A DNA stretch of 64,000 nt from positions 806,001 through 870,000 of the forward strand of contig OX597828.1 in NCBI GenBank assembly GCA_951406725.2, written 5' to 3'. A model generated the notes under the pieces. The model was not told the origin of the DNA. It ran no database searches and saw nothing but the letters and a program-made list of their open reading frames with translations. This document shows, in pieces, positions 1 through 62,139 of this stretch. The stretch comes from Octopus vulgaris (lineage: Eukaryota). Made by a program: the position numbers and the translations under genes. Within the stretch, counting starts at the first letter, position 1; every line of letters begins with the position of its first letter.

Positions 1-1142
1 CTATCACCGACACCCAGGAGAAAAGAATGGTATGATAAGAGGACCATTGTTTACAGGGTGTGCGCAAACGAAAGGAAGAGGGTAGAAGTTGTATCCATGG
101 AATGGATAGAGGAAGCCCTGCGAAGAACTGAGGAGGAAATAAATTTTCTGACTCGAGGATCCAAGTACGGGACCGTAGTTGTGCACTTTAAAAGTGAATC
201 TGCAGCGAGGAAGATGGCAGCGAAGGCGGTGAAGTCGGAAAAGGTAACACTGTTACCTACGTATTTAAACAGGAGGATTACACGAATAAGGGTGGAGGGA
301 GTGCCACCAAACGTGGAGGCAGAATGGATTGTGGCGGCTGTGATCAGCGGCCACGAGGACGAAGTGGATATTCTCCATGCCTCGGTTAAGTCCGAGGGCT
401 GGAGAGGCGTAACAGTGGAGCTGAACGTACAGGCAGAGACCGAGGTACTGGTGGACCTGACGGAAAGCATCAGACTGGGAGAAGTGATCATGAGAGTGTG
501 GGTGGAGGGCAGGGCTCCACGTTGTTACAAGTGTGGCCTGAGGGGTCACATAAGAGCCTTCTGCCCTCCCCCAGGGAAAGAAATGGATCCCGAACCAGAG
601 AGAGAGAAGCAGAAACCAGAGGAGAAGGAAACAGAGGAAGAGAATACACAGAAATGGAAGGAAGCTGGAAGTAAGAGGAAGAGAAGAATATGTGGAAAAA
701 AAGAAAATAATATGGAACTCCAATCTACCCCAAAACCTCCCACACCCTCTGAGTCCCACCCTATCCATGCAGACATTGAACCCACCCGCTCCCCCCCAAC
801 AAGAAAACAAAAGAAAAAAAAGAATACACACACACAAGAGATTGAAATCGAACCCAGGCCGTACATTTGTACTATGACTGAACAGAGGAAGTTAAAAGTC
901 TAATGGAAGAGTATAAACGGTATGATGTTGGAGAGACTAGGTATGCTGTGATTGAAAAGAAGAACATAGGTGAGTTTATGGGGAGGTGTGAAAGGGAGAA
1001 TTGGGAGGTGAAAGATATAAGAATGAGCGATGAATTCGTGGAAAATATGAATGAGTATTTCGGAGTAAGAATGGATATGGAATTTATTCGTATTGGCAAA
1101 GAACATTCAAGTGACTATGAAAAACAAAGGACAGGTAAGTGA
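1..1142 (+). pseudogene. Gag-like ORF1 of copy 1, broken by a 1-bp frameshift near 888
   Basis: ORFs 58-903 and 903-1142 together match the C-terminal 380 aa of ORF 1457-2875. GAACAGAGGAAG here versus GAACAGAAAGAAG in copy 2. Confidence 0.85.
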
Positions 1143-1294
1143 TGCTGACGGACGGGGCCGTTGGTATCGCTTTCATTTTATCATTTTTTTCGTTTAACAC
1201 TTCATGTTCATATAGTTTAATTATAATGTTCTATGTCCCCATGTTTTGTGATGTCCGGCACTCTTCGTAGCCCCTTAGTGGGTAATAAAGAAAT
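1..1294 (+). mobile_element. ORF1-only (HAL1-like) Tx1-type non-autonomous retroelement, copy 1 (5' part outside window)
   Basis: Near-identical to 1733-3027 (offset 1732/1733). Encodes a gag-like ORF1 with CCHC knuckle CYKCGLRGHIRAFC. A short 3' UTR ends GCCCCTTAGTGGGTAATAAAGAAAT. No ORF2. Confidence 0.85.
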
Positions 1295-3027
1295 ACGTTT
1301 TTTTTCGGCTCCTGAAATTCGGTAAAAAAGAACAAAAAGCGTTGTTGTTGTTGTGGAAATTCTGAACGGCGTTGACGCGGTTTCGCGTTTCGCTCGTTCA
1401 GCGCGTTACACTTTTTCTGTTTTGGCGGCCGTTCTCGGTCTGTCAGACAGAAGGAAATGGACTATGAGTCTCTAACAGACTTGTCCACGACAGATGAGGA
1501 ACTGGAACAGGCAATTGCAATGAAGCTGATGGAAGAAAAGGCTGGAATTTTCGAGTCTTTATCAGACCTGCCTACGTCTGAGAAAGAGCTAGAAATGGCA
1601 GCAAGGAATTTGGAAGAGAAGCTGGGTTATACCTATGCCGGTGTAACCAAGAAGGCGGAAGAGAAAGGGGTAGACATGGCCAAGTTGCCAAGTTACCAGA
1701 AATACATGAAAAAGGAAAGCGGTGAGGTGGAACTATCACCGACACCCAGGAGAAAGGAATGGTATGATAAGAGGACCATTATTTACAGGGTGTTCGCAAA
1801 CGAAAGGAAGAGGGTAGAAGTTGTAACCATGGAATGGATAGAGGAGGCCCTGCGAAGAACTGAGGAGGAAATAAATTTTCTGACTCGAGGATCCAAGTAC
1901 GGTACCGTAGTTGTGCATTTCAAAACTGAGTCTGCAGCGAGGAAGATGGCGGCGAAGGCGGTGAAGTCAGAAAAGGTAACCCTATTACCTACGTATTTAA
2001 ACAGGAGGATTACACGAATAAGGGTGGAGGGAGTGCCACCAAACGTGGAGGCAGAATGGATTGTGGCGGCTGTGATCAGCGGCCACGAGGACGAAGTGGA
2101 TATTCTCCATGCCTCGGTTGGGTCCGAGGGCTGGAGGGGCGTGGCGGTGGAGCTGAACGTGCAGGCAGAGACCGAGGTACTGGTGGACCTGACGGAAAGC
2201 ATCAGACTGGGAGACGTGATCATGAGAGTGTGGGTGGAGGGCAGGGCTCCACGTTGTTACAAGTGTGGCCTGAGGGGTCACATAAGAGCCTTCTGCCCTC
2301 CCCCAGGGAAAGAAATGGATTCCGAACCAGAGAGAGAGAAGCAGAAACCAGAGGAGAAGGAAACAGAGGAAGAGAATACACAGAAATGGAAGGAAGCTGG
2401 AAGTAAGAGGAAGAGAAGAATACGTGGAAAAAAAGAAAATAATATGGAACTCCAATCTACCCCAAAACCACCCACACCCTCTGAGTCCCACCCTATCCAT
2501 GCAGACATTGAACCCACCCGCTCCCCCCCAACAAGAAAACAAAAGAAAAAAAAGAATACACACACACAAGAGATTGAAATCGAACCCAGGCCGTACATTT
2601 GTACTATGACTGAACAGAAAGAAGTTAAAAGTCTAATGGAAGAGTATAAATGGTATGATGTTGGAGAGACTAGGTATGCTGTGATTGAAAAGAAGAACAT
2701 AGGTGAGTTTATGGGGAGGTGTGAAAGGGAGAATTGGGAGGTGAAAGATATAAGAATGAGCGATGAATTCGTGGAAAATATGGATGAGTATTTCGGAGTA
2801 AGAATGGATATGGAATTTATTCGTATTGACAAAGAACATTCAAGTGACTATGAAAAACAAAGGACAGGTAAGTGATGCTGACGGACGGGGCCGTTGGTAT
2901 CGCTTTCATTTTATCATTTTTTTCGTTTAACAATTCATTTTCATAAAGTTTAATTATAATGTTCTATGTCCCCATGTTTTGTTATGTCCGCCATTCTTCG
3001 TAGCCCCTTAGTGGGTAATAAAGAAAT
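1295..3027 (+). mobile_element. ORF1-only (HAL1-like) Tx1-type non-autonomous retroelement, copy 2 (complete, about 1.73 kb)
   Basis: About 160-nt CpG-rich 5' UTR with a hairpin at 1362-1401, an intact ORF1, and a 150-nt 3' UTR with the same tail as copy 1. Confidence 0.85.
1457..2875 (+). CDS. Gag-like ORF1 nucleic-acid-binding protein (472 aa; RRM-like region plus CCHC zinc knuckle)
   Basis: Intact ATG-TGA ORF with Cx2Cx4Hx4C. Aligns by eye with the LINE ORF1 at 3262 (RGSKYGTVVVHF vs RGKKYGTVEVRF; VEGRAPRCYKCG vs VEGRKPRCFGCG). Confidence 0.9.
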   Translation: MDYESLTDLSTTDEELEQAIAMKLMEEKAGIFESLSDLPTSEKELEMAARNLEEKLGYTYAGVTKKAEEKGVDMAKLPSYQKYMKKESGEVELSPTPRRKEWYDKRTIIYRVFANERKRVEVVTMEWIEEALRRTEEEINFLTRGSKYGTVVVHFKTESAARKMAAKAVKSEKVTLLPTYLNRRITRIRVEGVPPNVEAEWIVAAVISGHEDEVDILHASVGSEGWRGVAVELNVQAETEVLVDLTESIRLGDVIMRVWVEGRAPRCYKCGLRGHIRAFCPPPGKEMDSEPEREKQKPEEKETEEENTQKWKEAGSKRKRRIRGKKENNMELQSTPKPPTPSESHPIHADIEPTRSPPTRKQKKKKNTHTQEIEIEPRPYICTMTEQKEVKSLMEEYKWYDVGETRYAVIEKKNIGEFMGRCERENWEVKDIRMSDEFVENMDEYFGVRMDMEFIRIDKEHSSDYEKQRTGK

Positions 3028-3261
3028 CACATGGAGGAAATCAATTTTTTGCGTTATTAGTAAGTTGATATATATTTTTGCTCTCATACTACTTATCTCT
3101 GTTATTATATACTGTTGGTCTACCTTTTTTTTTGTCCATTGTTGTCTAACCGACGAAGTCAACCTTCGCGCGAAGACTTCGCGTTGGTGTTCCCCCCTCA
3201 GTGGGGGAAAACTACAATTAATTTAGATCTACCAAAGGCTTGTTAAAGCCATTTGTTCAAG

Positions 3262-4637
3262 ATGGAGTCCCCCATCACTTATTCGCCCGTGACGAGCGAG
3301 GATGAATACCCGGCGTTGTCGCCAAGTAAAAAAGAGGCGTTGTCGCCAAGAAAAAAAGAGGCGCTGTCGCCGAAGAAAAAAGAGGCGGCGTCGCCCAAGA
3401 AAATGGTAAAACCAGTACCAGCATCAACTCCAGCAAAAAAATTCGCTGAAGTGGCTGGGAAGAAAATTAAAAAAATTAACGTGGACAACCTGGGAAAACA
3501 TGCGGACTGTGTGTCAAAAGAGGGCACGGAAGTAACCGTGGCTTCAAACGCCCAAATACAGGAGGATATTTCGAATAGGAGAATAATCTATAAGACATTC
3601 AGTATAACAAACAGAGCAATCCAAAAAATAGAGGAGAAAAAGATTGAAAACTGCTTAAAGCCAATAATGGATAAAATTACGTATATCAATCGAGGGAAGA
3701 AATACGGCACAGTGGAGGTGAGATTCACGTCAGAGGAGGTAGCGAAGAAGCTATCCATGGAACCCATAAAAGCGGAGGATATTGTTCTCCTACCCCTGTA
3801 TAAAGGCAAGAGAACTTCCAAGATCACAATGAACAACATCCCGCCAGAAGCGGATGCCGAAGTCCTAGTGGCAGCAGTTATGGTAGGCCTGGAGGAAAAA
3901 ATAAACATCCTCCAGGCCACCGTAGAAGAAGAAGAATTCTGGAAAGGGCAAAAGATAATAATAGCCATACAAGCAGAAGTACAAACCCTGGAAGAGATCC
4001 CAGAGACTCTAAGGATAAGCGAAGATGAAAGAGTCACAGTCTTCGTAGAGGGCAGAAAGCCGAGGTGCTTCGGCTGCGGTAAGAAGGGGCATGTAAGGGC
4101 GGAATGCCAGCCCCAACCCAAACCGCAGGAAGCACCTAAGCCAAAAGAAAAGAAGACAATGTGTCACCAGAAGCAGCGTCAGACGGCCCAGAAGGGAAGA
4201 CTGAAGGTGTGGAGGTGATGGTAACAGCAGAACCAGCGGCGGAGAAAAAAAGAGCGAGGAAAAGATAAATGAGGAGGGGTGGGCAAAAATTATCGGAAAA
4301 AAAAAAGAAAAACGGAAACCACCCCTCCCAGAGTAATTTTAAAAAAGAAAAAAGAGTCAATGAACTCATATATGGCCGTAAAAGCATCAAATAGCAGACT
4401 CGGAAACGTGTTGGCAGCCATGGCCAAAGTGAAGAAAGTAGAGAAAAAAATGACTTTGTAATTTACAAAATAGACCGGAAGGATTACGGGCGGATAAAGT
4501 CAGAATTCTTCCATGACGTAGGCCCACTTAGGTTGGATGTAACATCTCCACATATATTCGAGGGCCTACGTCAGACTCCCCCACGAGGCCCAGAAAAAGA
4601 GAAGGAAGAAGAAGAAAAAACCGAACCACTGATATAA
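3262..4637 (+). pseudogene. LINE ORF1 (gag-like, CCHC), frameshifted in A-runs after about 4150
   Basis: ATG at 3262 and knuckle CFGCGKKGHVRAEC. Coding-like sequence continues in shifted frames (EDNVSPEAASDG..., MNSYMAVK..., DFVIYKIDRKDYG...) to a stop just before ORF2. Confidence 0.75.
3313..3400 (+). repeat. 24-bp tandem repeat encoding ALSPxKKE (about 3.5 copies)
   Basis: GCGTTGTCGCCAAGWAAAAAAGAG units giving ALSPSKKE ALSPRKKE ALSPKKKE AASPKK. Confidence 0.85.
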
Positions 4638-4646
4638 AGGTAAGTA

Positions 4647-7600
4647 ATGGATTACATTTATGTTGGTTGTTTAAATGTGCGCGGCCTGGGAGCAGGCTGG
4701 AAGCAAGGTCGCTTCCTGCATGATATCAGGTCGCGTAATTTAGATGTTATTGTTGCTACAGAAACCCGGTTAGAGGGGCCAAGAGGTCTACTCCCGCTGT
4801 TTGACGGCTACGAGAGTTTTTTCTCTCCTGGCAGTCCTACAGGCGGGAGTGGGGTGTTGGTCCTATTAAAAAGAAACCGGGTTTCTGAGAAAAAGTTAAT
4901 TTTTGCAGATCCAGAAGGTAGGCTGGTCGTCATGGATTTGACGTTCAGTAATGGTAAAGTTATCAGACTGGTTGCAATTTACGCACCCAACCATACAGGG
5001 CAAAGTGATTATTTTCGTGAACTAGAAAACTTTCTTGGTACTTCGCATTCATTAGTGGTGCTAGGAGACTTTAACACAATTTGCAAAGCGGATGTAGATT
5101 ATGTTGGCTCGTGTCCAGATAGAAAAGGCAACAGTGGCTTCATGGAACTGCTAAGCCGCTTTGAGCTAGCAGATCCTTATAGGCTGGAATTTCCGAACGC
5201 TCCATTGTGGACATGGTCAAACAGCGACGGATCTTCCAGGTCGTATCTAGATAGAATACTAATTAGAAAAGTAGACAGTAAAATAGCTAAGTGTCCACAG
5301 TTTTACCCGATCAGCTACAGTGATCATAAAATGGTCACTTGTAAGCTTGACATAGATAAGGTTAAAAATAGAGGATCCGGTTACTGGAAACTTAATACGT
5401 CCCTTTTGGCGATTAAGGAGTACAAAGACCGGATTAGGAATATAATTCAGAGGGCACTATCTGGTACCATCATTAATAACAAATGGTGGTACGCCCTCAA
5501 ACGAGCCATCAAGTTTGAGTCTATTAGATATAGCATAGGAGTAGTGGCTAGAGAGGCTAGAAGGGAAACTACTCTAGTTAAGGAATTAGAGGAAGCCATG
5601 AAAACTGGCTCTGCGGCTCAGGTGGCGGCCAAGAGACTGGTGTTAAACCAGCACCTCGAGGCCAAACACATGGGCTGCATTGTCAGGGCTAGAATCCGTC
5701 ATATGGGATGTGAAGGAATCAACGCCGTGAGATGGGCCCGAGTGGTGGAAGCTCAGCATGGTAACGATGCCACGATTCGATCTTTGACGAACCAACAAGG
5801 TGAGTTGATAAACGAACCCGAGGAGATGTGTGAGGCCTTTCAGGAGCACTTCGCTCAGCTTTTCGATGAGTGCGGCGGACTGGATAGGAGGAGGGCCTTT
5901 ACGGACCTACTCGACGGTCTGCCGCGCTTATCGGGGCGAGATGCGGAGGGCTGTGAAGGGCCAATCACGCCTGAGGAGGTGGTTGAGGCAATGGCGGACT
6001 GCGGTGCGGGCAAGGCGCCGGGTTTGGATGGTCTACCCTATGAGTTATATAAGAGTATGCCAGACTTGTTCGGGCACCTACTGGCGGAGGTCTACGCGAA
6101 CTGGCAGCAGAACGGGCTTATACCCAGATCTGTGCGCCGGGGAGTAGTGACTCTCGTCAGAAAGGACCCGAGCAAGGGGGAGTGCATTGATAATTTCAGG
6201 CCCATCACTCTGCTAAACACAGAGTTGAAGATTTTGGCCAAAGTGTTATCGAAAAGATTGGCGCGTGTCGCGGATGGTCTGATCGGAGGGGCACAGACAT
6301 GTGCCGTTCCGGGCAGATCCATTCAGGATAATCTCCATCTAATGCGGTACACTATAGAGGGGTTTAATAGTGATTCTGGCAAGGGTGGGGCACTGGTCCA
6401 TTTAGACCAATCTAAAGCTTTTGATAGGGTCGACCATCGTTACCTGGTATCTGCCCTGGCACAGTTCGGGCTGAGCCTTGGATTCCTCAGGTGGATTATC
6501 GAAATTTATGATAACATCGACTCGGTAGTTCGGGTGAACGGCTTCTTGTCGAAGCCGTTCAAAATCAAACGCTCGGTTCGTCAAGGGTGTCCGCTCTCCC
6601 CGCTTTTGTACGTGATGGCTCTTGAGCCATTACTGCGAAAACTGAGCGGCATCCCGAGACAGCCAGGTAATGGAAAATCAGTGTCAGCGTACGCGGATGA
6701 CATCACCATCATCGTAACCGAAATGGACCACCTATGTAAAGTAGGCAAGGCCATAGAGGTGTACGAGACGGTGACAGGAGCAAAAGTTAATCGCGAAAAG
6801 TCAGTCGGCTTGCAACTCGGCACCTGGAGAGGCAAGTCGATGCCTCCTGACAGCGTCGTGGGACGTTGGACGGAGGGTCCGATTAAACTGCTAGGGGTCT
6901 GGTTCGGTCCAGACCTCCAAATAGAGAAGAATTGGGGCGAGGTAACGAGCAAGGTGGCTGCAGTAGCCAAGACCTGGTCTTGGCGGTGGCTATCCCTGAA
7001 AGGGAGGGCGGAGGTGGCCAATGTGTTTATCGCATCGGTTATCACCTACCGCCTTTCCGTCGTTCCTTGCCCTGATTCGTGGTTGATCAAATTGGAAAGA
7101 CAGCTCTTCTACTTCTTGTGGAAGGGCGGGAAACCACTTGTGAAACGCTCTACTTGCTGTCAACAACCGTTAAAGGGTGGGCTAGGGATGCCTTGGCTGA
7201 TGATGCGCAGACATGCGCTGAGGTTAAGACATCTGTGGCTCTACCTGGATGGTGAACGGGTGTGGTCTTCGCTAGCAAAACTGATGTTTCCCAAGTTCAC
7301 TAGTTTCGGTGGATGGGAAACCTGGCTGAATCGTAGATCGAAACTTGGTACTTGGTACACGGAGTGTCGCAAGGCTCTCCTGCTATTCCGTCGCTCGGGC
7401 AACGCCTGCGGTGGGGGTTCCACCACTTTCTTCTATAGAGGGTTGGTAGAGGCGGAATGTGAAGATACCTTGGGGGAAACCCTAGGTCTCGACGATAATC
7501 AGCTGGCCAGTCTGTTCCGACGTACGTTCGAGCCAAGGACACTGGACAACTTCCAGAAGTCTCTGGCATGGCAATGCTACAGAGGAGCTCTACCTGTTCG

Positions 7601-8042
7601 GGATAAACTCGCAAGGCACGGTGGCCAAGACAGTCCGATATGCCCAAGATGCGGGCGGGATAGGGAAACCGTCCCGCACGCGATTGTTCATTGTCCGGAC
7701 GTGTCTGAGGTGTGGGTTTATGCCGAACACCTGTTGTCAGGTACACGAAGAGTACAGCTGTCGACTGAGTCGATTACAAAAATTGACCCACCGGATTTCC
7801 TCGTGAATGAAGGTAAGTTTCGTTTTCTCGTTGTAGTAGCAATCGCGAAAGAGGTGATATGGAAGACGAGAATGAAAGGTTTACAGTCAGGCAAGTTCAT
7901 CTCCGGCCCTGGTTTGATGAATTATTTCATCTTTCACCTGAAAAGGAAGATAGGGCTGGAGAGAATATGCCTGACTAGGAGAGCGTATGAAGAACGATGG
8001 AAGGATGTAGCACGGAAGTTGCGAATGAAAGTTACAACATAA
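4647..8042 (+). CDS. LINE ORF2: APE endonuclease, reverse transcriptase and C-terminal CCHC (1131 aa, intact)
   Basis: APE motifs NVRGL, ETRL, IYAPN, GDFN, LDRIL, SDH. RT motifs KAPGLDGLP, FRPITLLN, LDQSKAFDRV, RQGCPLSP, YADD. C-terminal CPRC..ETVPHAIVHC. Confidence 0.96.
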   Translation: MDYIYVGCLNVRGLGAGWKQGRFLHDIRSRNLDVIVATETRLEGPRGLLPLFDGYESFFSPGSPTGGSGVLVLLKRNRVSEKKLIFADPEGRLVVMDLTFSNGKVIRLVAIYAPNHTGQSDYFRELENFLGTSHSLVVLGDFNTICKADVDYVGSCPDRKGNSGFMELLSRFELADPYRLEFPNAPLWTWSNSDGSSRSYLDRILIRKVDSKIAKCPQFYPISYSDHKMVTCKLDIDKVKNRGSGYWKLNTSLLAIKEYKDRIRNIIQRALSGTIINNKWWYALKRAIKFESIRYSIGVVAREARRETTLVKELEEAMKTGSAAQVAAKRLVLNQHLEAKHMGCIVRARIRHMGCEGINAVRWARVVEAQHGNDATIRSLTNQQGELINEPEEMCEAFQEHFAQLFDECGGLDRRRAFTDLLDGLPRLSGRDAEGCEGPITPEEVVEAMADCGAGKAPGLDGLPYELYKSMPDLFGHLLAEVYANWQQNGLIPRSVRRGVVTLVRKDPSKGECIDNFRPITLLNTELKILAKVLSKRLARVADGLIGGAQTCAVPGRSIQDNLHLMRYTIEGFNSDSGKGGALVHLDQSKAFDRVDHRYLVSALAQFGLSLGFLRWIIEIYDNIDSVVRVNGFLSKPFKIKRSVRQGCPLSPLLYVMALEPLLRKLSGIPRQPGNGKSVSAYADDITIIVTEMDHLCKVGKAIEVYETVTGAKVNREKSVGLQLGTWRGKSMPPDSVVGRWTEGPIKLLGVWFGPDLQIEKNWGEVTSKVAAVAKTWSWRWLSLKGRAEVANVFIASVITYRLSVVPCPDSWLIKLERQLFYFLWKGGKPLVKRSTCCQQPLKGGLGMPWLMMRRHALRLRHLWLYLDGERVWSSLAKLMFPKFTSFGGWETWLNRRSKLGTWYTECRKALLLFRRSGNACGGGSTTFFYRGLVEAECEDTLGETLGLDDNQLASLFRRTFEPRTLDNFQKSLAWQCYRGALPVRDKLARHGGQDSPICPRCGRDRETVPHAIVHCPDVSEVWVYAEHLLSGTRRVQLSTESITKIDPPDFLVNEGKFRFLVVVAIAKEVIWKTRMKGLQSGKFISGPGLMNYFIFHLKRKIGLERICLTRRAYEERWKDVARKLRMKVTT

Positions 8043-8290
8043 ATGTAATACCAAGTGCAACCAAAAGTATCAGTGGGGAGGCGGGGCTCGTGGGGTCCGA
8101 GCTAAACCCGCACCCACTCCACCCGTAATGTCTTCCGGTCTGTCCTATCACTCGATTTCTGTCCATTTATTGTTATTCATGAAAATTTTTAAACCCGATT
8201 TATTGTAAAAACCCATTCGTTTGTCTGACCCCATCATCAGATTGTATTGTCCCATCTGTGTTCGCCCCTTGTGGGTAATAATAAAACAAC

Positions 8291-8620
8291 ATGGAGGAAA
8301 GCACCTTCTAAAAGTGTCTTGGTGCGACTATGAAAGGTATCTAATCAGAGGCGGTAAATTCGTCACATTAGAAGCAAGGTTCGAGTCAACGGAGCGTGCA
8401 AGGGAGTACTCGACTCGAACTTGCAAAGTGGAAATATTTTATTTTTACCTTTATATCTGGGACGTAGGACGTCCCGGAAAAAAATTTTAAATCCACCCCA
8501 CCCCTCACCCCCAGAAGTAGAGGTATGCTGGATTGTAGCTACACTTCTATACAAGAGGGCGGACAAGATACAATTGATCGAAATTACAAGAGACGGGCTA
8601 ACAATTCCAGTCTGTTATAT
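8291..8620 (+). pseudogene. Decayed ORF1 fragment of a third related Tx1-type family (insertion target of the LINE)
   Basis: Across frames it reads MEESTF*KCLGATMKGI / RGGKFVTLEARFESTERAREYS / ILFLPLYLGRRTSR..PPEVEVCWIVATL, colinear with both ORF1 proteins. Confidence 0.75.
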
Positions 8621-13700: not shown

Positions 13701-15047
13701 CTTAGAATAACTTAGAAAGGTTTTAGCCAGTATTGGCCCAGGCTATGTCTAACTTAATAGCACCACCTGGTGAAGTTTTTCAATTCAGGATTTGGGCACC
13801 AAGGCCCATTCGAGCAGAGAGTTATTGTTTGCGGAGACATATCCGGGTGTGGGTGGTTTGTCCGGGACTGTTTGAAGGAATTTGTCCAAAATCTTCTTGA
13901 ATTTTGTGTAGTCAGTTTCTGTTTTGACGTGTCTTGGTGTAATGTTGAAGAGGGCGGGTCCAATTGAGGTGAAATAATTGTGCAGTAATGTTGTTATGAG
14001 ATGCGATTGAGATTTTTGTTGTGGACGGATGGCACGGGGTCCGAGTCTTGGATGTATTTTGAAGGTGATACCAACATCATTTGGACAGTGCTGATGGAAT
14101 ATTTTCCACATCATACAGATGATGTAGCGTTCACGGCGTGAATACAGTTTCAGCTTTTCCAGTCGATCCCAGTAGTCAAGGTCTGACATGCCATCTATCT
14201 TTTTCGTGATTGACCTTTGGGGAGCTTCAACTTTCATAATATTTTGTTTTGTGTAGGGAGACCACAGTGGACAGCAGTATTCAAGGTGGGGTCGGGCAAA
14301 AGTAGAGAAGAGAAGGATAATAGTGTGGGAATCTCTCGACTGGAAAGTTCTGAGAATCCAGGAACACATTCTGCGGGCCATGTCAACTTTGCTGCTTATA
14401 TGTGTAGCCCAGCTTATGTTGTTGTCCACAGTTACTCCCAGGTCTCTGATGTTGTTAGACGCCATGAGAGTTTCACCAGAAGGAAGGGAGTATGGGAGTT
14501 TCAGAGCGTCCTCCCTTCCAAAGTGGATCAATTCGAATTTGTCTTCGTTTAGCAACATGTTGTTCTTTTCCGCCCATTGGACAACAGCCAGTAGGTCTGA
14601 CTGAAGGTTTATTCGGTCATCCACGCCATTGATGACCTTCTGGAGCTTGGAATCATCAGCTAAGATTCTGATGTTACTATATTTGATGATGTCAGTGATG
14701 TCATTAATGTAGATGATGAAGAGAAGTGGGCCCAACACAGTGCCTTGTGGGACACCACTACTGACTTTGGCTGGGCTGGATTTGACTCCTTCGACTACAA
14801 CATGTTGGGTTCTGTTAGACAGGAAGCACTTGATCCACTGCAGTAGCTTTCCAGTGACACCAATATTGGACAGCTTTCTCAAAAGGATCTTATGATCAAC
14901 CCTGTCAAAGGCCTTGCTGAAATCAAGGTAGATAACATCAGTGTTGGAACCCTCTCCCAAGGCTCTCAAAATGTCATAGAAGTGATACAGTAGCTGCGTC
15001 AGACAATCCCTTCCATTACGGAATCCATGCTGGTTGGAGTTCAGCAT
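13700..15047 (-). mobile_element. 5'-truncated CR1-group LINE (RT C-terminal part and 3' tail)
   Basis: QHGFR, YLDFSKAFDRV, SGVPQGTVLGPLLF, ADD, RPHLEYC..WSP. The tail ends in TTCTAAGTTA repeats. Confidence 0.85.
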
Positions 15048-16090: not shown

Positions 16091-17289
16091 TTTATGTTTG
16101 CACTCAGCATGTATGTATGTATGTATGTATGTATGCATGCATGCATGCATGTATGTATGTATGTATGTATGTATGCATGCATGCGTGTATGTATGTCAGG
16201 TCACACTTAGTGCTGCTGCTAACACGTAACTCAGTACAAGATATCGCATGATCAAACCGTCAGCGTTTAAACCGGAAAACCTACCAGGCCTGCTTAGTAG
16301 GAAGGGATATTTTCCTTGGACACTCGGGAGGACGAAAAAACCTGTCTTAGGACGGATTAACTCTAATAGAGTTCACGGCCATCCAACAGATGAGAGTGTG
16401 AGACCATTAGTTTTTATTTAGATATCTCTCAAGGAAAAGGAAATTCCGAAACCCGCCTCATTGCTAAGTCGGGGATCTTGCCTTTGCTTGTTTCTGGACT
16501 GCTTGGTTTTCTAGGTGAGGGTCTTAGAGGTGTTCAGTTAGTTGTTATTGACTTTAAATTTCATCATGAGCACTGCTGACAGCCATTGTCTTTAACACTT
16601 AGGATAAGATTATTTATTAGTAATGATTATACTTATGCTCCTCTACGAGTATGTATGTTCTCAAGTATGTATTTTTGTACACATGTATATATGTTTATAT
16701 GTATGTAAGGCGAAGAACTAGAAGAATATTAGAGGCGCGATATACGTTCCAATACCGACCAGATCGAATTTGCCTTTCACCCAAACAGGAAATTTTCGTC
16801 CGGACTTTCGCTATATATGAGAATATTGATAGAAGCTTGTAACAATATCTTTAATATGACTTCACCTATTTTAATATTCCGCCAAAAATAGGTAACTTTT
16901 CTACGAATATAGGTTCAGTTAACTAAAAGTGTTTTGATATTATTACGGGACAGGAACATATTGAATTCAAGAATGATAATTCTTTACAATCGTTTGCACA
17001 AGCCGAGATATTAGCTAAGTAGTTATCAGCAAAAGAAATCCGTCGTAAATAATTTTCACCGTTTATTTTCTGAATACTATCATATTATTGGTTTCATTTT
17101 CATTTATGTTTTCTTGTTCTTTACTTATCCTTCTTTTCTTTGTTGCAATCTTGAGTATTTCACGGATGGAGAGCAATTTCCGACAGTGTTTTGACTGTTG
17201 GCATTATTTTTCTATTACTATTCACTCTATTAAGTTTAAGGCCAATAGTTTGAGCATTCTCTGCCAGTATGTGTGTCTTGGTCAAGCTA

Positions 17290-20769: not shown

Positions 20770-21599
20770 TCTTCTTTCAAACACTTAATTTTGGGGAGTA
20801 TTTTTTGATGAAAAGTAGTTCCATTGCCTTTCCAAACTTTGGGTTATCTCTTGAACATTTGTAGAAGGGGAAAGTTTTAAATTTTTTTCACCGCATTTTT
20901 CTAGATACTTGCTCAGTGAAATCTTACGTAGTCCCTCTTGTCGGATTCGCTGTCTGTTCTTGCACGTTGGCAAAGGGAGTTATTTGTTTCGCCAATATAA
21001 TTTTCCTTGCAGCTGGGGCAAGTGATACAGTATATAAGATTCTGTGTCTTGCAGTACATATCTGCATTTACTTTCAACTAGAATCTACTCTTGGATTCTA
21101 TGTGAGAATCACTTTCTAAATATTTGAAGCTGTTGTTGTTGTTGTTTTGTAGTTGTTGTTGCATACGGAGAATTCTAATTCATTCTCTGATGTGAATTTT
21201 GCCCTTGTGAGGTGTCTTTTAAGATTTTTTAGGTGGCGTTTATTGTTTCGTAAGAGGTTTTCATCAATCAGATTTTTCATTTTAGGGCTTTGTAGAAGTA
21301 TTGGTAGGTTTGATTTTGTGGTGTGAAAAATGTTGGTTACTCCAGGATTGTGCATATTGATAAATGGAATCGTGTGTTCTTCAATTTTTTGCTTTGGTGT
21401 CCTTAGTCGTGTGATGTTCAACTTCATCACCTTTTTGATTCCATCATTTATTAATTCTAAGGAGTAATTCTGTTTTCTTAGGAAGCCTTTGAGTTCATTA
21501 AGTCGGATTTGACGTATTTTGAGGTCAGTTACTAAAGAACAGTAACTTCTTGCCATACTGCATGGGATGTTCCTTTTGATGTGTGAGGGATTGCAAGAG

Positions 21600-21600
<1 letters not shown>
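20770..21600 (-). mobile_element. Penelope-like element fragment (RT C-terminus, linker, GIY-YIG), decayed
   Basis: SSCNPSHIKRNIP...LRKQNY...NLKRHLTRAKF, followed by GIY-YIG remnants (LIYCITCP, HRQQIR). Confidence 0.8.
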
Positions 21601-21637
<37 letters not shown>

Positions 21638-21727
21638 ATTCATTGTTGTTTGTTTTGCTTTCAATAAGTGATATTGTTGACCGCAATATAGAAGACTTAC
21701 ATTTCTTTTATCTTTCTTTGTGCACAG

Positions 21728-22109: not shown

Positions 22110-23035
22110 CAATGCTAGCAGAACCATTTCAGCTTTGGACAAAATGCCTTGCGTTATTTGTTCTGGCTCTTTTCGTTCTCAGTTCAAATCCCACCGAGGC
22201 CAGATTTTCCTTTTATTCCCTCGAGGAGGTTGAAATAAATAAAGTATCAGTTATGTACTGGGTCTGAACAACCAATTAACCAGTTAACCCCTTCCCAATT
22301 ATTACAGAAAGATGATGACTTGGCAGAATTGTTAGAACGTCGACAAAATTACTTGAGCGTATTTTATTTCTAGCTTATTACGTTCTAAGTTCAAATTCGA
22401 TTGAAGTCAACTTTACTTTTCATCTCTTTGGAGGTTCGATAAAATAAAGAACCTGTCAAGCACTGTGATCGATTTCCGGTTCTTTATATTCTGAGTTCAA
22501 ATCACACGAGCTCAACTTTGCCATTAATCCTTTCTGGTTCATGAGTTATATGTATTTGATGTTCCCTTCCCCTTGAAAACAGCTGGTCTTGAGCCTAAAT
22601 TAGAGGAGTTAATTATTTCAGCTACCAACACAACGAAATAGAATCGTTAGACTGTAGAACAAAATGCTTAGTGACATTTCCTCTGTGTATATGCTCTGAA
22701 TTGAAATTCCGCAGAGGTCGACATTTTCTTTTATCCTTTCAGAGTAGACAGTATATGTAGCTGTTGAGTACTGAGGTTGATGTAATCGACTTACCCCTCC
22801 TCCAGCTAAAATTACAGGCCTTGTACCAAAAGTTGAAACCGTTATTTTAGCTTCCAACGGTAGAATCATAAGGGCATCGGACAAAATACTTAGCGGTATT
22901 TCTTCCGGCTCTTTAAATTCATCTTCTATCTTTTCAAAACCAATAAAAATAAATTTCTAAACAAGCTTTGGGTCCGATATAATCGTCTTATCTCCTCTTA
23001 AATTAACGAACCTTGTGTCTAAACGAGAAATTATT
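22110..23035 (+). mobile_element. Head-to-tail array of about 5 decayed tRNA-derived SINE copies
   Basis: Repeated GGCAGAAT..GTTAG...GAGTTCAAAT..CGAGGTC.ACTTT units homologous to 61547-61776. Confidence 0.7.
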
Positions 23036-23809: not shown

Positions 23810-24894
23810 TACGTACATCTCAGATAAAGGAGATTGAAACCTGAACATTATCCTCAGTAAGCACTTCCGCTAAAAGCAGCTATCAAAGTATATCTCTGCA
23901 GATGGTTTATCTCAAGTGTAATAAATTGTCCCGTAATTTTCCAGATTCATATTCTTAAGAATATTATTTCTCTTGCACGCATTTTTCCATGTAATACATG
24001 TATTTTTCTAGGCTATGCTATTATGCTAATTAATAATGTGTTGAATGTGTCAATTAGTGGTGTCACTGGTAATTTTTTCCTTACCTCAATGACGCCGGTG
24101 ACATATATTAAAAGTCCCCTTTAAAATAAAAAAGTTAATTATACTTAAATCCAATTTTTTGCCTTATATTGTTTCATGATTTTTTGCATCACAACTTTTT
24201 TGATACAATTTTTTATTGCATGGGACCAAAACTATGAAATTCTTCATGCTTTCTTCTATCATTGAAGCTAAGATAAATATATCTTGCTTTAAAAATAAGT
24301 TATTTAGATCTAAACTTGATTGGTGACGTTACTTACTCTCCTAAAATGTTGCTACAAATTTTGATATAAACTTTTTTCTACTGGATCCAATCACAATTTT
24401 TTATGCCAAGATGTGGCTAGGGACCAGTTCTCTTCAAAAATGTTAACAGATTTCAATTTGATTAAGAACTGAATTAGCGACAAGATCTCAAAGATGCTGC
24501 ATGTGAGTAAATTGCGGCGTTAAGAATATTATTCAACTACTACCGTAGTTGAATGATAAGATATAGAATACAGAGTAGAGCAAAAGTATCTTTGCATTTC
24601 AATAACATAAATAACATTTTAAGGCGGTTAGTTGGCAGAATCATTATAACGCCGGACAGAATTCATATTAAATCATCGACTAAATACATTAGAACCGACC
24701 TACAGTCAGTATATAAATGAACTGCATGAAATATATGTGGTCGGAAATCGTTTGATAAGGCTGGAAAGAGGTGAAAAGCGATGAAATCGAAGAGTTAAGG
24801 AGTTCGTTTATTTTTCACAGTGAATATGCACCGAAATATGGATGCTGAAATCACAACGAGAACAAAGACATGATGGAATGGAAGGCGTTTATCT

Positions 24895-24939
<45 letters not shown>

Positions 24940-25034
24940 TACATATACACACACACAAACACACACATATATATGTATATATATATATATATATTTACAA
25001 ACATATATATGTATATATATATATATGTATTTAC

Positions 25035-25082
<48 letters not shown>

Positions 25083-25089
<7 letters not shown>

Positions 25090-25410
25090 CAAGACCAACT
25101 TCTGTTTCTCCGAGAACCTTATCTACGTTCTCACATGCGCCGGTTGCCAACATAAATATGCTGGACAAACGAGCCTCCCTTTACGTAAAAGAGTAGCGGT
25201 CCATAAAGAACAAATAAATCACCCAGAATACCGTCAGATTCCACTAAGTAGCCACATAGATTCATGCGCTAAAGACAAAAATCCCAAATTTTACATATTC
25301 CCCTTCTACCAATGTAAAGACGGAATCACCACACAAGAAAGAATTAACAAGGAGAATCTTTTTATTGAAAAATTCAAAACGCATCTTAATATGCAATCTC
25401 CACGTTAATC
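25083..25410 (+). mobile_element. Penelope-like GIY-YIG fragment inserted in (TA)n
   Basis: [19 protein letters not shown]...[19 protein letters not shown]; paralogous to 17964-18338. Confidence 0.85.
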
Positions 25411-31621: not shown

Positions 31622-34600
31622 TCAACAGCCTATCTTTGAAGCTGTAAGGTTATCGTTCTCAGGAAGTACCGGGTCTTTCATCCAGTCAATTAATCCTTTC
31701 ACACTGACAATGTATACATCGGACAATTCCTCAACCAGTCCCAGGAAAGCGTTTAAACCTTTGAGGTTTTCTTCGTTGTTCGGTAAAAACCAGTCCGATC
31801 GTAAGCGAACACCAAAAGGCGTTCGATCTCTTTTGTAAAATGCCATGAAATTACTTAGAAGGAGATCATAGGTTTGCACCGCAGTCTGGGGTTTGTTATA
31901 GCAACTGTCAACAAATTTACACAAATACCTTTTCTTAATTCCAACATAAGGAACAGCAGGGACTTCCCAGAGACCCTTAAATTTTTTAGTAGGACACTGT
32001 TGTAGCAAGCAGTTTTTCTTCCATCCAAAGTCTAAGGTAGACGGCCAAATTCCTGTCCTATTCTCTAAATTTGTCATTACAAACAGTGACGAATCATACA
32101 GCATCTTACTATTTTGCAAATTTTCAAATTGAACGTCTCCTTTCGATTGAAGATCAATATTTCTCCAGCCAAATATTTTGTCATGAGATACATTAGCATA
32201 TCGGTTAAGCAAATATTTTTGCAAAGCAATTTCCATATTTAAAAGATTACCGGCCAGATTCTTCTTTTTTAACCCATGTAATGCAATTTCCATTCCTTCG
32301 TCGTAAAGCTCTTTAATAGCGGTATAATTAGATCCTTCGGATGTGACAAATAAGGTGCTTTTAATCCGGCAACCATTTGCATTTAACCTTTCGGCATGAA
32401 AAAGCCCTTTAAGTTTTTCAGTAATAGAAGAATTGATAGATCCTTCGTAAGTGAAATAAACGAATTGAGGAATTTTCTTCGATGTTGTTGGGATATGGAA
32501 TTGGTGACATTGACAACCTGGTTTATAGCAGTTCTTCCCTTGTTGACAGGATTCCGAAACTGATACATTGCTGTCGTCATTTGATTTCGAAGGACTGCTG
32601 TTGCTGCTACTACTATTACTAAGTTCCAAATGTTCATCCAGTGGGTCTGACGAAAATTCTCGAGATTTCACAAAGCCTGGTAATAAAGCGGATTTTGTAT
32701 ATCTACTTGTAAGAATATTTCGCTGACCTACACTTTTATTTTTATATCTGTTATTAATATTTATTCCAGTAGTAAAATCCAAGAAAGTTTTTCTTAAATC
32801 AGAGTATTTTGTTTTTAAATATTGTCCCCTTTCTAATGGAAGAATTTCGGCCTTTTTAGATAAAATAGCTTCTTTTTTCGGTGAAAGTATTTTAACTGTT
32901 TCTGATGATGGAATTTCTAATTTTTCAAATGGACGAATTTTGGTTATTTTAGATTTCAATAAATTTCTCATTGTTGTCATCGGTTTCACGTTTAACTCCT
33001 TCAAACCGTTTTCATAGTCCAACTTCTGCTGTCTGTTGTGGATTAATATTACCGGCTCACGGTAATCCTTGTTTGTAAGAAGTTGCCTGTCTATCGAATT
33101 ATTCTTTGCAACTAATATCACAGCGCTATCGTGGTTAGACGAATCTTTCGTAATTATCTTCTCTAGCTCCTTATCATTTTTCATTACCAGGCTGGCCGCT
33201 ACTCGGAATAAGTTTGATTTTCTATGAAAAACACTTTGAAGTGAATGTCTACTAGTGTCAATATTACTTTGGTCATTTTCATTTCTATTGTGTATGTTCA
33301 TGTTAGAATTGCTTTGAATAGGTAAGCTTCTTGTCTTCTTGATATCTGAATTTTCCTCGGCTGCGCTTCTCTCAGAAAAAACTTCAGGGAATTCGAATTT
33401 GTCTCTTTTATCACTTTTCAGTGACCGTTTATGGAGAATATTAGTTGGTACAGAATCAGAGGTCTGATAGGAAGTTCTCAACGTCACAGAAGACTCATTC
33501 AGTGGAGTCAGTGTCGTCTGAGAAATATTTTGTAATTTATTTCGACTGGCTGTATTCGAAGGTGACAGTGTCGAGTGAATTAATTCTCTTGTTGAATTGA
33601 AACTATTACCGATAGGCTGGGTTTGAGATGGTGTTGACTGAAAATTATATCCTTCCGTTACAAAATTATTAGAAACTTGTTGGGTTTGCAGCGATTGTAA
33701 CCTTGCGCTCGGGCCATTGTTATTGTTCCCTTCCATGTTTTGTGACATCATCACGTTTGTAGTGATTTCTCCCATCAAGACTGTTGTTGCTAGTTTCGTT
33801 GACGAAATCGTTTCTACAGAAACTATGGTTTGGTTTGGGAAACTGGAATATTGGTTTATGGAACTGGTGGTTTGATTTGGGAAACTGGAAGATTGGTTTA
33901 TGGAACTGGTGGTTTGATTTGGGAAACTGGAATATTGGTTTATGGAACTGGTGGTTTGATTTGGGAAACTGGAAGATTGGTTTGTGGAACTGGTGGTTTG
34001 ATTTGGGAAACTGGAAGATTGGTTTGTGGAACTGGTGGTTTGATTTGGGAAACTGGAATATTGGTTTATGGAACTGGTGGTTTGATTTGGGAAACTGGAA
34101 GATTGGTTTGTGGAACTGGTGGTTTGATTTGGGAAACTGGAATATTGGTTTATGGAACTGGTGGTTTGATTTGGGAAACTAGAAGATTGGTTTGTGGAAC
34201 TGGTGGTTTGATTTGGGAAACTGGAAGATTGGTTTGTGGAACTGGTGGTTTGATTTGGGAAACTGGAATATTGGTTTATGGAACTGGTGGTTTGATTTGG
34301 GAAACTGGAAGATTGGTTTATGGAACTGGTGGTTTGATTTGGGAAACTGGAAGATTGGTTTGTGGAACTGGTGGTTTGATTTGGGAAACTGGAATATTGG
34401 TTTATGGAACTGGTGGTTTGATTTGGGAAACTGGAAGATTGGTTTATGGAACTGGTGGTTTGATTTGGGAAACTGGAATATTGGCTTATGGAACTGGTGG
34501 TTTGATTTGGGGAGTTGTTTGTTTGTTTTGGCGAAATGGTGGTTCCGTTTAGGTAACCGTTGGTTTGGTTCTGACATTGAAACGGAGCAAATTTGGACAA

Positions 34601-35602
34601 CTCATTTAACGATGGTTGGTGCTTCATCCATTCCACAATCTGTTTAATATTAACAACATAAACGTCATTGAGGCCGAGGATATAGTCTAAAAATCGATGC
34701 ATGGCTTTCATTCGGTATGGGTTCGTCTCATATTCTTGCAACAACCATGTTGAATGCATGTTCAAGCCAAGTGGTGCCTTGTTCATAGTGTAGTAACTCA
34801 TGAAATTTTCCAGCAAGAAATTGAATGATTCTTCTTCGTTTGTTGGTGAATTCGCACATCCGTCCACATAGACGCAAGGATAACGAGCCAGTTTGTCAAG
34901 CACTGTCACGATAGGTACTTCCCAGAATCCTTGAATATTTTCGGTCGGACATTCGGGAATGCTGCAAGGATATGGCCAACCATAATCCATCGTAAATGGA
35001 ACTGGGGATTCTTCAATCAGTGACCTTTTGGTGATAGTCAAAGTTGAATCGTAGGCAAAACCTGCCTTACTCAGTATTTCAAACTGTTCGTTTCCGTAAG
35101 CTATTAAATACGGACTTCTGAATCCGACAATTTCTTCTTTGGGTATCTGCGATCGATTGGCAAGGTTTAACCGTTGACCGAGTGCTTCGTATGAAAACTG
35201 AAGAGCATTCAGTGATCTTATATGATTGATGCCATGCACTGCTATATCCATTCCTTGGTCATAGAACTGCTTCACCAAGTCGTAATCGGTATCGTTATGC
35301 GACACGAACAAAGTCATCGAAATTGGGCACTTATTTGGATTTGTGCGGCTTTTATTGAATAATTCTTCATAAAGAGGAGAATTTCGAACTGTCACTGCAT
35401 CGTCGAACGAGAAGTAAACCAACTGAGGCCTTTGTGACTTTTTACCGGGGATTGTATGGCCACAGCAGGAGCAGTTTGGCAGAGTGCAGTGACCCGTTGT
35501 TCTACATTTATTGCATTCGTTTGGTGTAGTGCGTATGTTGGCGAGGACGATAGAAGCAGAAAAGATTGCCAATGACAAAACGAAAAAGAATGGGAAGTTC
35601 AT
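31622..35602 (-). CDS. Secreted tandem chitin/polysaccharide deacetylase-like protein (CE4): intact domain, Ser/Thr/Asn repeat, degenerate second domain; 1326 aa in one uninterrupted ORF
   Basis: Hydrophobic N-terminus. Domain 1 has SFDD, HGINH, GFRSPY, YDST, WEVP and PLGLNMH. Domain 2 has TYEG, HGLKK, GWRNID, YDSS, WEVP and PFGVRLR. Confidence 0.92.
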   Translation of the reverse strand: MNFPFFFVLSLAIFSASIVLANIRTTPNECNKCRTTGHCTLPNCSCCGHTIPGKKSQRPQLVYFSFDDAVTVRNSPLYEELFNKSRTNPNKCPISMTLFVSHNDTDYDLVKQFYDQGMDIAVHGINHIRSLNALQFSYEALGQRLNLANRSQIPKEEIVGFRSPYLIAYGNEQFEILSKAGFAYDSTLTITKRSLIEESPVPFTMDYGWPYPCSIPECPTENIQGFWEVPIVTVLDKLARYPCVYVDGCANSPTNEEESFNFLLENFMSYYTMNKAPLGLNMHSTWLLQEYETNPYRMKAMHRFLDYILGLNDVYVVNIKQIVEWMKHQPSLNELSKFAPFQCQNQTNGYLNGTTISPKQTNNSPNQTTSSISQYSSFPNQTTSSINQSSSFPNQTTSSINQYSSFPNQTTSSTNQSSSFPNQTTSSINQSSSFPNQTTSSINQYSSFPNQTTSSTNQSSSFPNQTTSSTNQSSSFPNQTTSSINQYSSFPNQTTSSTNQSSSFPNQTTSSINQYSSFPNQTTSSTNQSSSFPNQTTSSTNQSSSFPNQTTSSINQYSSFPNQTTSSINQSSSFPNQTTSSINQYSSFPNQTIVSVETISSTKLATTVLMGEITTNVMMSQNMEGNNNNGPSARLQSLQTQQVSNNFVTEGYNFQSTPSQTQPIGNSFNSTRELIHSTLSPSNTASRNKLQNISQTTLTPLNESSVTLRTSYQTSDSVPTNILHKRSLKSDKRDKFEFPEVFSERSAAEENSDIKKTRSLPIQSNSNMNIHNRNENDQSNIDTSRHSLQSVFHRKSNLFRVAASLVMKNDKELEKIITKDSSNHDSAVILVAKNNSIDRQLLTNKDYREPVILIHNRQQKLDYENGLKELNVKPMTTMRNLLKSKITKIRPFEKLEIPSSETVKILSPKKEAILSKKAEILPLERGQYLKTKYSDLRKTFLDFTTGININNRYKNKSVGQRNILTSRYTKSALLPGFVKSREFSSDPLDEHLELSNSSSSNSSPSKSNDDSNVSVSESCQQGKNCYKPGCQCHQFHIPTTSKKIPQFVYFTYEGSINSSITEKLKGLFHAERLNANGCRIKSTLFVTSEGSNYTAIKELYDEGMEIALHGLKKKNLAGNLLNMEIALQKYLLNRYANVSHDKIFGWRNIDLQSKGDVQFENLQNSKMLYDSSLFVMTNLENRTGIWPSTLDFGWKKNCLLQQCPTKKFKGLWEVPAVPYVGIKKRYLCKFVDSCYNKPQTAVQTYDLLLSNFMAFYKRDRTPFGVRLRSDWFLPNNEENLKGLNAFLGLVEELSDVYIVSVKGLIDWMKDPVLPENDNLTASKIGC
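33835..34510 (-). repeat. Coding minisatellite, 16 x 42 bp, encoding PNQTTSS(I/T)NQ(S/Y)SSF
   Basis: Direct reading; 21-bp sub-period. Confidence 0.95.
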
Positions 35603-40439: not shown

Positions 40440-40630
40440 GAGGCGACGAGCTGGCAGAATCGTTAAGCACGACCGACAAAATGCTTAGCGACATCTCGTC
40501 TGTCTATACACTTTGAATTCACATTCCACCGAGGGTGATTTAGCTTACACATTCGATGAAATAATCGACATGCTCCACCCCGACCCCACATAAAATATCA
40601 CGCTTTATTCTTGTAGTAGAAAAGACCAAT
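40440..40630 (+). mobile_element. Decayed tRNA-derived SINE
   Basis: AGGCGACGAGCTGGCAGAATCGTTAAGCAC head, matching 61550. Confidence 0.75.
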
Positions 40631-61370: not shown

Positions 61371-61546
61371 CTGCCACTTAATAAGAGGAACTTACACAGT
61401 TAAGAACTTAAACTTTAACCACTGGACTACATACAAACGACTCTTGTCCACTCTCCCACCAGGTAGATTAAATTTAGAGTGCCTTGATTGTAACTAAACA
61501 TACTCGCTCATCTGTATCGGCTTTCATTTTAGGCACAAAATATATT

Positions 61547-61776
61547 GAAGGCGGCGAACAGGCAGAATCGTTAGCACGCCGGGCGAAAGCGTAGCGGTAT
61601 TTTGTCTGTCGTTACGTTGAGTTCAAATTCCGCCGAGGTCCACTTTGCCTTTCATCCTTTCGGGGTCGATAAATTAAGTACCAGTTACGCACTGGGGTCG
61701 ATGTAATCGACTTAATACCTATGTCTGTCCTTGTTTGTCCCCTCTATGTTTAGCCCCTTGTAGGTAGTAAAGAAAT
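61547..61776 (+). mobile_element. Intact tRNA-derived SINE with Tx1-like 3' tail
   Basis: A-box-like GGCAGAATCGTTAG and B-box GAGTTCAAATTCC. Flanked by AAATATATT at 61538-61546 and 61777-61785 (probable TSD). Confidence 0.88.
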
Positions 61777-62139
61777 AAATATATTATCATATGATACTAT
61801 CGCACCGACATAGTGGGAAACGTACAAATCGTAATCACGTGTTCATTCTCTACAATTACTTGACAGAAAACATTCAGAGCATTGACTGTTTGGTACTATC
61901 ACTGGACTTGTTTAGTCAACCGTGTCAGCCTTAACTTACGATCCTAAACAATGCTACTTGATATTAACACACGGACGTAGCGGGGAACCTACAAACATTT
62001 ACAAGTCCTGTCATGTGACTATCCTCTACCAATCAAATTCTATACAAAACATGGTGTTAGAAGGCGTTTTGTTGGTCACTCAATTGCGACCCACACATAA
62101 TAATCAAGGGGTTTGCTGTCTGGGGAGTTGGGTGGCCAG

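Follow-up and report, generated by a model that had tools for sequence, protein, structure and literature searches.

ORGANIZATION OF THE LOCUS

The window analyzed here is a stretch of 64,000 nucleotides from the genome of Octopus vulgaris (contig OX597828.1, positions 806,001 to 870,000). Positions 1 to 8288 are occupied by a head-to-tail array on the plus strand, consisting of two copies of an ORF1-only element (copy A and copy B) and a full-length LINE of the L1/Tx1 group. A short SINE lies at 61547 to 61776 on the same strand, and a short 3' tail is common to the LINE, the ORF1-only element, and the SINE.

The remainder of the window contains truncated reverse transcriptase-encoding LINEs at 13785-15047 and 49307-50890, both on the minus strand and ending near simple repeats. 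Single-exon open reading frames are found at 31622-35602 (minus strand, 1326 amino acids) and 55838-58360 (plus strand, 840 amino acids), which by eye we take to be of the polysaccharide/chitin deacetylase type; the former has two deacetylase-like domains around a 21/42-nt tandem repeat at ∼33700-34670. By eye, short open reading frames at 21116-21643 (minus strand) and 24842-25408 (plus strand) resemble portions of Penelope-like elements, namely, the C terminus and the GIY-YIG part.

THE L1/Tx1-GROUP LINE

The LINE extends from 3044 to 8288 on the plus strand, with target-site duplications on both sides, and the contig joint of another copy also enters the element at 3044. ORF2 (4647-8042, plus strand) encodes 1131 amino acids with endonuclease, reverse transcriptase, and C-terminal zinc finger domains. 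ORF1 (3262-4637, plus strand) is open for 318 amino acids up to 4218, and its extent to 4637 is deduced from three reading frames. The first-pass annotation had described the element as autonomous. This designation suits ORF2, which is open with all three domains, but not ORF1, which is frameshifted after approximately codon 300. The ORF1 frameshifts lie in A-rich runs while ORF2 is intact, and the contigs of other samples differ there by single-base insertions. Either decay of this copy or an assembly error may account for the frameshifts.

The best structurally solved relative of ORF2 is the human L1 ORF2p (E value of 9e-65, compared to 5e-26 for R2). An APE endonuclease, a reverse transcriptase, a C-terminal zinc finger, and the L1 ORF2p as the nearest relative place the element in the L1 group, which comprises L1 and Tx1. 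The matches included no labeled Tx1 reference, although a single distant fungal one bears the automatic name TX1, and no relative of ORF2 was found in viral contigs. A CxxC..GH..C pattern is invariant in the ORF1 alignment, for which the nearest Atlas clusters are CCHC proteins (0.92). A CCHC knuckle in ORF1 is a feature of the Tx1 clade, unlike vertebrate L1. Diverged subfamilies of the LINE are numerous, with 4416 of 18124 contigs of run X2 being less than 90% alike, and 80 L1-Tx1 families have been counted in O. vulgaris.

THE ORF1-ONLY ELEMENT

Copy A (1-1294, plus strand) has its 5' end outside the window and an ORF1 frameshifted near 890-900. Copy B (1296-3027, plus strand), whose 5' end is uncertain by a few bases, follows head to tail, and the two copies are 97.2% identical over 1295 columns. 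The ORF1 of copy B (1457-2875, plus strand) encodes 472 amino acids with a CCHC knuckle; the zf-CCHC match has an E value of 0.08, short of the Pfam cut-off. After this reading frame, only 152 nt remain to the end of the element, with no ORF2. The protein shows 35% identity with the LINE ORF1 over 236 columns (E value of 2e-48). With an ORF1 homologous to that of a LINE, a LINE-type 3' end, and no ORF2, the element is HAL1-like. One public contig covers 2574-3040 with 0 differences.

The family is repeated and dispersed. Besides the 2 copies in the window, its C terminus is found in 5 O. vulgaris gene models, located on contigs of 5 different lengths; 3 of these models match it at 90 to 97%, with the other two consisting of tandem repeats thereof. 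The element is deeply covered in all 4 sequencing runs; contig depth differs from copy number and is used here, as for the element D described below, just for the statement of deep coverage. Relatives of ORF1 bear the names of O. bimaculoides, O. sinensis, and Argonauta, and 4 of 10 checked have octopod names, including O. vulgaris.

The O. vulgaris gene models P0045 and P0046 each contain three tandem ORF1-only C termini, which are spliced and annotated as host genes, and P0047 is a host gene model with an ORF1-only piece at its end. A perfect splice-donor consensus, AGGTAAGT, is located at 1133-1140, 2866-2873, and 4638-4645, and an ATG follows within two bases. In either family this is where ORF1 ends, directly before ORF2 in the case of the LINE, and these ORF1-end sites make up 3 of its 5 occurrences in the window. 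The O. vulgaris gene models seem to be spliced at this sequence, which could be left over from the junction of ORF1 and ORF2 or represent a U1 site.

THE SINE

The SINE (61547-61776, plus strand) is 230 nt long and carries an A-box-like motif at 61560-61570 and a B-box-like motif at 61621-61631, both on the plus strand. It is flanked by a 9-bp target-site duplication (left copy at 61538-61546 on the plus strand, right copy at 61777-61785) and ends with the shared tail. The box-like motifs, the short length, the duplication, and the multiple copies, with 4 further ones at E values of <1e-9 in the window, identify it as a tRNA-derived SINE. ARAGORN made no tRNA call, no Rfam match was obtained, and the source tRNA was not found in these searches. 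The center of the element may resemble a Deu/Nin domain.

Older pieces of the SINE occur as five in tandem at 22116-22995 and scattered at 40441-40546, 24621-24659, and 16744-16788. These pieces have the head and core of the young SINE but a different tail. All 4 of the older copies compared from 22116-22995 lack the shared tail, against which they score 12 to 15, compared to 43 for the LINE/SINE pair, and the older copies have no significant common tail among themselves (scores of 14 to 17). SINEs are reported to make up 11.6% of the O. vulgaris genome.

THE SHARED 3' TAIL

The tail common to the LINE, the ORF1-only element, and the SINE is real. In the LINE, it spans 8247-8288 (plus strand), with the core motif of all three element types starting at 8264; the motif occupies 1270-1294 in copy A and 3003-3027 in copy B, and the tail of the SINE lies at 61735-61776, all on the plus strand. 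Recounting the alignments of the first-pass annotation gave exactly the same numbers, with 30 of 36 columns matching between the LINE (8247-8281) and the SINE (61735-61770) and 24 of 27 between copy B (3001-3027) and the SINE (61751-61776). The full-length comparison comprises these four copies: the LINE, copy A, copy B, and the SINE. Local alignment of the last 60 nt of each element yields scores of 43 for LINE/SINE, 39 for copy B/SINE, 37 for copy A/SINE, and 31 for LINE/copy A, each matched by 0 of 5000 dinucleotide shuffles, and a score of 31 for LINE/copy B, matched by 2 of 5000. When the SINE tail is used as a query against 4264 tiles on both strands, the six best nonself tiles (scores of 29 to 41) are without exception LINE or ORF1-only tails, and no unrelated tile exceeds a score of 26. 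The other two LINEs in the window lack the shared tail (scores of 17 and 14).

Homology across all three element types covers just ∼19 to 25 nt, from GCCCC onwards. The likeness between LINE and SINE reaches ∼20 nt farther upstream, weakly (48 of 2000 shuffles are as good), and beyond this point the shuffle test found no homology. For pairs with the ORF1-only element, no likeness was found upstream of the motif, with 242 to 1846 of 2000 shuffles being as good. As DNA, the LINE and the ORF1-only element share 6 weak blastn pieces, among them a terminal match of 18/19 (E value of 0.09) and one A-rich low-complexity stretch; the rest could not be aligned by blastn. ORF1 proteins that are 35% identical, together with a DNA match confined to the tail, call for either selection or a recent swap. 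In a comparison of public contigs with positions 1200-8420 at 80% likeness, run X1 contributed at least 4 contigs that agree with the LINE at ≥80% from 8247 onwards and have a SINE body upstream, so that the match extends beyond a single SINE copy.

Scans of databases with the tail pattern gave 0 matches in viral contigs, 1 in metagenome contigs, and 2 in prokaryote genomes. All three are in unrelated sequence and are regarded as chance matches; two come from named bacterial records, and the third is identical to one of those around the match. One of the three, L003:1744-1768 in a Paraglaciecola contig, matches the ORF1-only tail at 25/25 positions in an apparently coding sequence and is likewise read as chance.

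ELEMENT ENDS AND FOLDING OF THE TAIL

Poly(A) is absent from all four tail copies, as the first-pass annotation had stated. The elements end 11, 11, 11, and 12 nt past the GGT of the motif. In the LINE and the two ORF1-only copies, the motif includes an AATAAA, and these elements end just 3 to 5 nt after it; 3'-end processing could therefore account for some of the conservation of the motif. The SINE copy has AGTAAA at this place. The LINE is bordered by target-site duplications at 3029-3043 and 8289-8303 (plus strand), with 12 nt exact and 14/15 if extended. In the one LINE copy and the one SINE copy with duplications, the tail sits within them, which makes it part of the element and not of the insertion site. 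In these single copies, the duplications differ, with 15 bp (12 exact) for the LINE compared to 9 A/T-rich bp for the SINE, and their sequences are unrelated. The last 13 nt of the tail flank copy B on both sides, a consequence of two identical tails in tandem.

The tails of the LINE and copy B had been proposed to fold into a recognized hairpin. A hairpin with 4 pairs can indeed be drawn for these two, but it folds no better than shuffled sequences and shows no covariation. The 29-nt ends fold at −4.5 kcal/mol (LINE) and −5.0 kcal/mol (copy B), with 48 and 19 of 200 shuffles, respectively, folding as well; the SINE end reaches −1.3 kcal/mol, with 113 of 200 shuffles as good. In a 64-nt context, the hairpin is part of the lowest-energy fold of only one of the four tails, that of copy A. 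The LINE and ORF1-only tails have z scores between −0.1 and −1.4, compared to +0.2 to +0.3 for the SINE. The covariation check proposed together with the hairpin, made on the four-tail alignment, gave 0 compensatory changes among 3 pairs and 1 pair broken in the SINE, with the low power of n = 4. The hairpin as the recognized feature is therefore rejected on shuffle-level folding and the lack of compensatory changes, within the low power of four tails.

THE INSERTION SITE

Downstream of the LINE, positions 8289-8620 (plus strand) contain the decayed ORF1 of a third relative, designated D, which is also a deeply covered repeat. Its frameshift-aware scores are 123 and 112, whereas none of 40 random tiles exceeded 38 and none of 40 shuffles exceeded 35. 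D is matched by 89 of 150 ORF1 relatives, which were collected with the ORF1 profile; a search with the D fragment by itself found nothing. The LINE and copy B thus sit in the ORF1 of a third relative, which the first-pass annotation had missed. A distance of 1 nt separates the tail end of copy B from the duplication of the LINE, and ∼1 nt separates the tail of copy A from the start of copy B. The former distance places the two insertions into D 1 nt apart.

In run X9, one contig continues from the ORF1-only tail past 3040 straight into D and shows the site with the LINE absent. Translated by eye, the sequence immediately upstream of the ORF1-only 5' end, both in X9 and at a joint in X6, gives the residues found ahead of this point in the D-like proteins P0155 and P0119. 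At least 33 contigs of run X2 run upstream from 8292 into other sequence, as an uninterrupted D would. Among the joints listed for X6, one consists of the tail, 15 nt, and the start of the LINE at 3044; by eye, these 15 nt have 10/15 bases in common with the site in the window, comprising ACATGG and, four bases later, AAGC. Another X6 joint connects an ORF1-only tail to a truncated ORF1-only head, and together with the tandem ORF1 ends in P0045 and P0046, this indicates that arrays occur at other loci. The LINE's own ORF1 is without the site motif at the homologous position.

From these observations, it is a nearly balanced question, tilted slightly against, whether the LINE prefers the ACATGG..AAGC site in the ORF1 of related elements and built the array at 1-8288 in this way. 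At least 2 X9 contigs with a different flank after 8288 and the location of the SINE copy outside D run counter to such homing, and the empty site in X9 and the 5' flanks of the ORF1-only element might reflect allelic variation at this locus or a single old insertion that was duplicated along with its flanks. If homing is true, read-through into target DNA would be a second reason for the absence of poly(A) from the LINE, not from the SINE.

PROPOSED ORIGIN AND FUNCTION OF THE TAIL

The terminal 20 to 40 nt probably constitute a homologous cis-signal of an octopod L1/Tx1-group lineage, with a motif that is recognized by its ORF2p, kept by the ORF1-only element, and gained by the SINE. Only the last bases are conserved, and these in register, which is what a required cis-signal predicts. 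The ORF2p of the lineage would bind the motif, with primary sequence being a more likely basis of recognition than a stable hairpin, and target-primed reverse transcription would start ∼11 to 12 nt downstream of it. The ORF1-only element would have arisen from a member of the lineage by loss of ORF2, with the handle kept, and the SINE, with its older head and core, would have received the handle by tail swapping, a process described for SINEs (PMC4824008), and would borrow the enzyme. The proposal of a stringent-type reverse transcriptase made in the first-pass annotation thus stands in part: the genome shows the signature of this type, in the form of a common terminal motif, ends that are in register, and the lack of poly(A), but its hairpin is unsupported.

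Such a signature might also come about if the motif were the polyadenylation signal of polymerase II elements, forming their 3' ends, with the SINE having obtained it once by template switching and being mobilized in a relaxed manner via its A-rich end. The AATAAA in the motif of the LINE and both ORF1-only copies, the unsupported hairpin, and the rarity of shared tails (3 SINEs for >800 L1-clade LINEs in the available text of PMC3472496) speak for this explanation. We nonetheless regard it as unlikely, given that all four copies lack poly(A), that the SINE keeps the same end register with AGTAAA, and that the G/C part upstream of the AATAAA is also conserved. Cleavage usually takes place 10 to 30 nt after AATAAA, and the ends found here are nearer than that. 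Slightly more improbable still is the reverse direction of transfer, in which a LINE ancestor landed just upstream of a SINE tail, acquired this tail by read-through, and has carried it as a passenger since. The great abundance of SINEs in O. vulgaris and the ∼20 nt that the LINE has in common with the SINE beyond those in common with the ORF1-only element agree with a capture of this kind. Between families with 35% ORF1 identity, it requires two captures or a long neutral survival, and the different tail of the older SINE copies suggests that the SINE was the receiver.

Two further explanations are very improbable. The tail could be an insertion target, i.e., a pre-existing SINE end, instead of a part of the LINE, which the first-pass annotation had named as a finding against its own interpretation. 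The 1-nt distances between array members and the tail-to-head contig joints elsewhere, among the joints listed, are what targeting of tails would produce, but the LINE tail lies within the element's own duplication, the duplicated bases belong to D, and the sequence upstream of the LINE and ORF1-only tails contains no SINE body, so that this explanation is largely refuted for this copy. A chance or convergent likeness of 3' ends that are pyrimidine rich and then A rich gains some ground from the short three-way core of ∼19 to 25 nt and from the 25/25 match in an unrelated bacterial contig; the 0 to 2 of 5000 shuffles, the top ranks among 4264 tiles, and the agreement of strand, terminal position, and register all stand against it.

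With a recognized cis-signal as the preferred explanation, the question of the SINE's partner follows. That the LINE of this array supplies the ORF2p to the SINE is conceivable but rather doubtful; otherwise, a sister family with the same tail would do so. Given the large number of diverged LINE subfamilies and the different insertion signature of the SINE, the partner may be a sister family of this kind. A more comprehensive picture is speculative and, taken as a whole, unlikely: an octopod Tx1-type lineage with a short, unstructured 3' handle in place of poly(A) or a hairpin that supports an ORF1-only element and a young SINE subfamily, homes to a fixed site in the ORF1 of its kin, disables them, and builds arrays. 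If this is true, the retrotransposon would harbor parasites and, at the same time, parasitize its own relatives.

COMPARISON WITH KNOWN SYSTEMS

Stringent and relaxed types of LINEs are distinguished (PMC4176376), and one proposal holds that L1-group enzymes were ancestrally sequence specific and later relaxed to poly(A), with plant and algal cases in support (PMC3472496). This proposal could be put to the test with an animal element of the L1/Tx1 group whose ORF2 is intact and whose handle is short and defined, both by a reporter assay and by comparison with the solved structures of the human L1 ORF2p. The lineage would also be a candidate for the machinery behind some of the octopus SINE load.

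L1-clade tails are rare among SINEs, being present in 3 of 58 SINEs with LINE tails, from maize and Chlamydomonas, and the table of LINE/SINE pairs lists neither a Tx1 nor a mollusc pair in the sections available (PMC3472496, PMC3747384). The LINE-derived regions in SINEBase are likewise given as Bov-B, CR1, and L2 only in the parts consulted (PMC4824008, PMC5804259, PMC4758252, PMC3531059). The maize elements LINE1-1_ZM, ZmSINE2, and ZmSINE3 and the Chlamydomonas elements L1-1_CR and SINEX-3_CR resemble the octopus elements in combining an L1-group LINE and a tRNA-derived SINE with a short common 3' end. These common ends of ∼50 and 80 nt are read as stringent recognition (PMC3472496, PMC3747384). 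The maize tails form a firm hairpin of −10.8 to −17.7 kcal/mol with compensatory changes (PMC3747384), in contrast to the octopus tail, for which none is supported. The Chlamydomonas pair ends in poly(A), whereas the octopus tail of ∼40 nt does not; unlike these pairs from a plant and a green alga, the octopus tail belongs to an animal and is also found in an ORF1-only family (PMC3472496, PMC3747384).

The crocodilian Tx1-Mar/SINEU system is another case in which a Tx1-clade LINE, with a preference for transposon targets, is concluded to move SINEs, and its tandem insertions sandwiching a duplication are like the octopus array (PMC4494074). This link is based on targets. In the available text, no LINE with the 3' end of SINEU-1 was found, and the SINEU elements end in poly(A) (PMC4494074). 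The target preference amounts to 13 to 23% for SINEU-2 and SINEU-1, compared to 90% for SINEU-3, and many Tx1 members show such a preference, with >20% of flanks (PMC4494074). The Tx1 targets listed there are DNA transposons, LTR elements, snRNA genes, and microsatellites (PMC4494074). The ORF1 of a related non-LTR element, the octopus site, differs from the crocodilian targets (DNA transposons, LTR elements, and microsatellites) (PMC4494074), and the range of Tx1 targets would be extended by a new kind if a preference for the ORF1 of relatives were confirmed.

HAL1, HeT-A, and Ag-Sponge also consist of only an ORF1 and LINE ends and rely on an autonomous partner (PMC5786205, PMC5753468). Their origins differ, with HAL1 derived from mammalian L1, HeT-A from Jockey, and Ag-Sponge from CR1, compared to the CCHC-type L1/Tx1-group origin of the octopus element, which in contrast to these three has its tail in common with a SINE (PMC5786205, PMC5753468). 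The octopus repeat papers, in the portions available, name no partner LINE for SINEs (PMC13282606, PMC8967140, and PMC9115989), and the literature search found no Tx1/SINE shared tail for the octopus or another animal, although Repbase or Dfam may already contain the families.

The L2/CR1 pairs of UnaL2 and of ZfL2-1 and ZfL2-2 come close in that they have a shared tail and a defined end without poly(A) (PMC4176376). They belong to another clade, and a stem-loop was shown by assay to be required (PMC4176376), whereas no stem-loop is supported for the octopus tail. Each ingredient of the octopus system is thus known, and the literature searched did not contain their combination in an animal L1/Tx1-group lineage. 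By the evidence of its ends, the octopus system would work like a stringent LINE/SINE pair with an additional ORF1-only passenger, presumably distinct from pairs of the stem-loop type.
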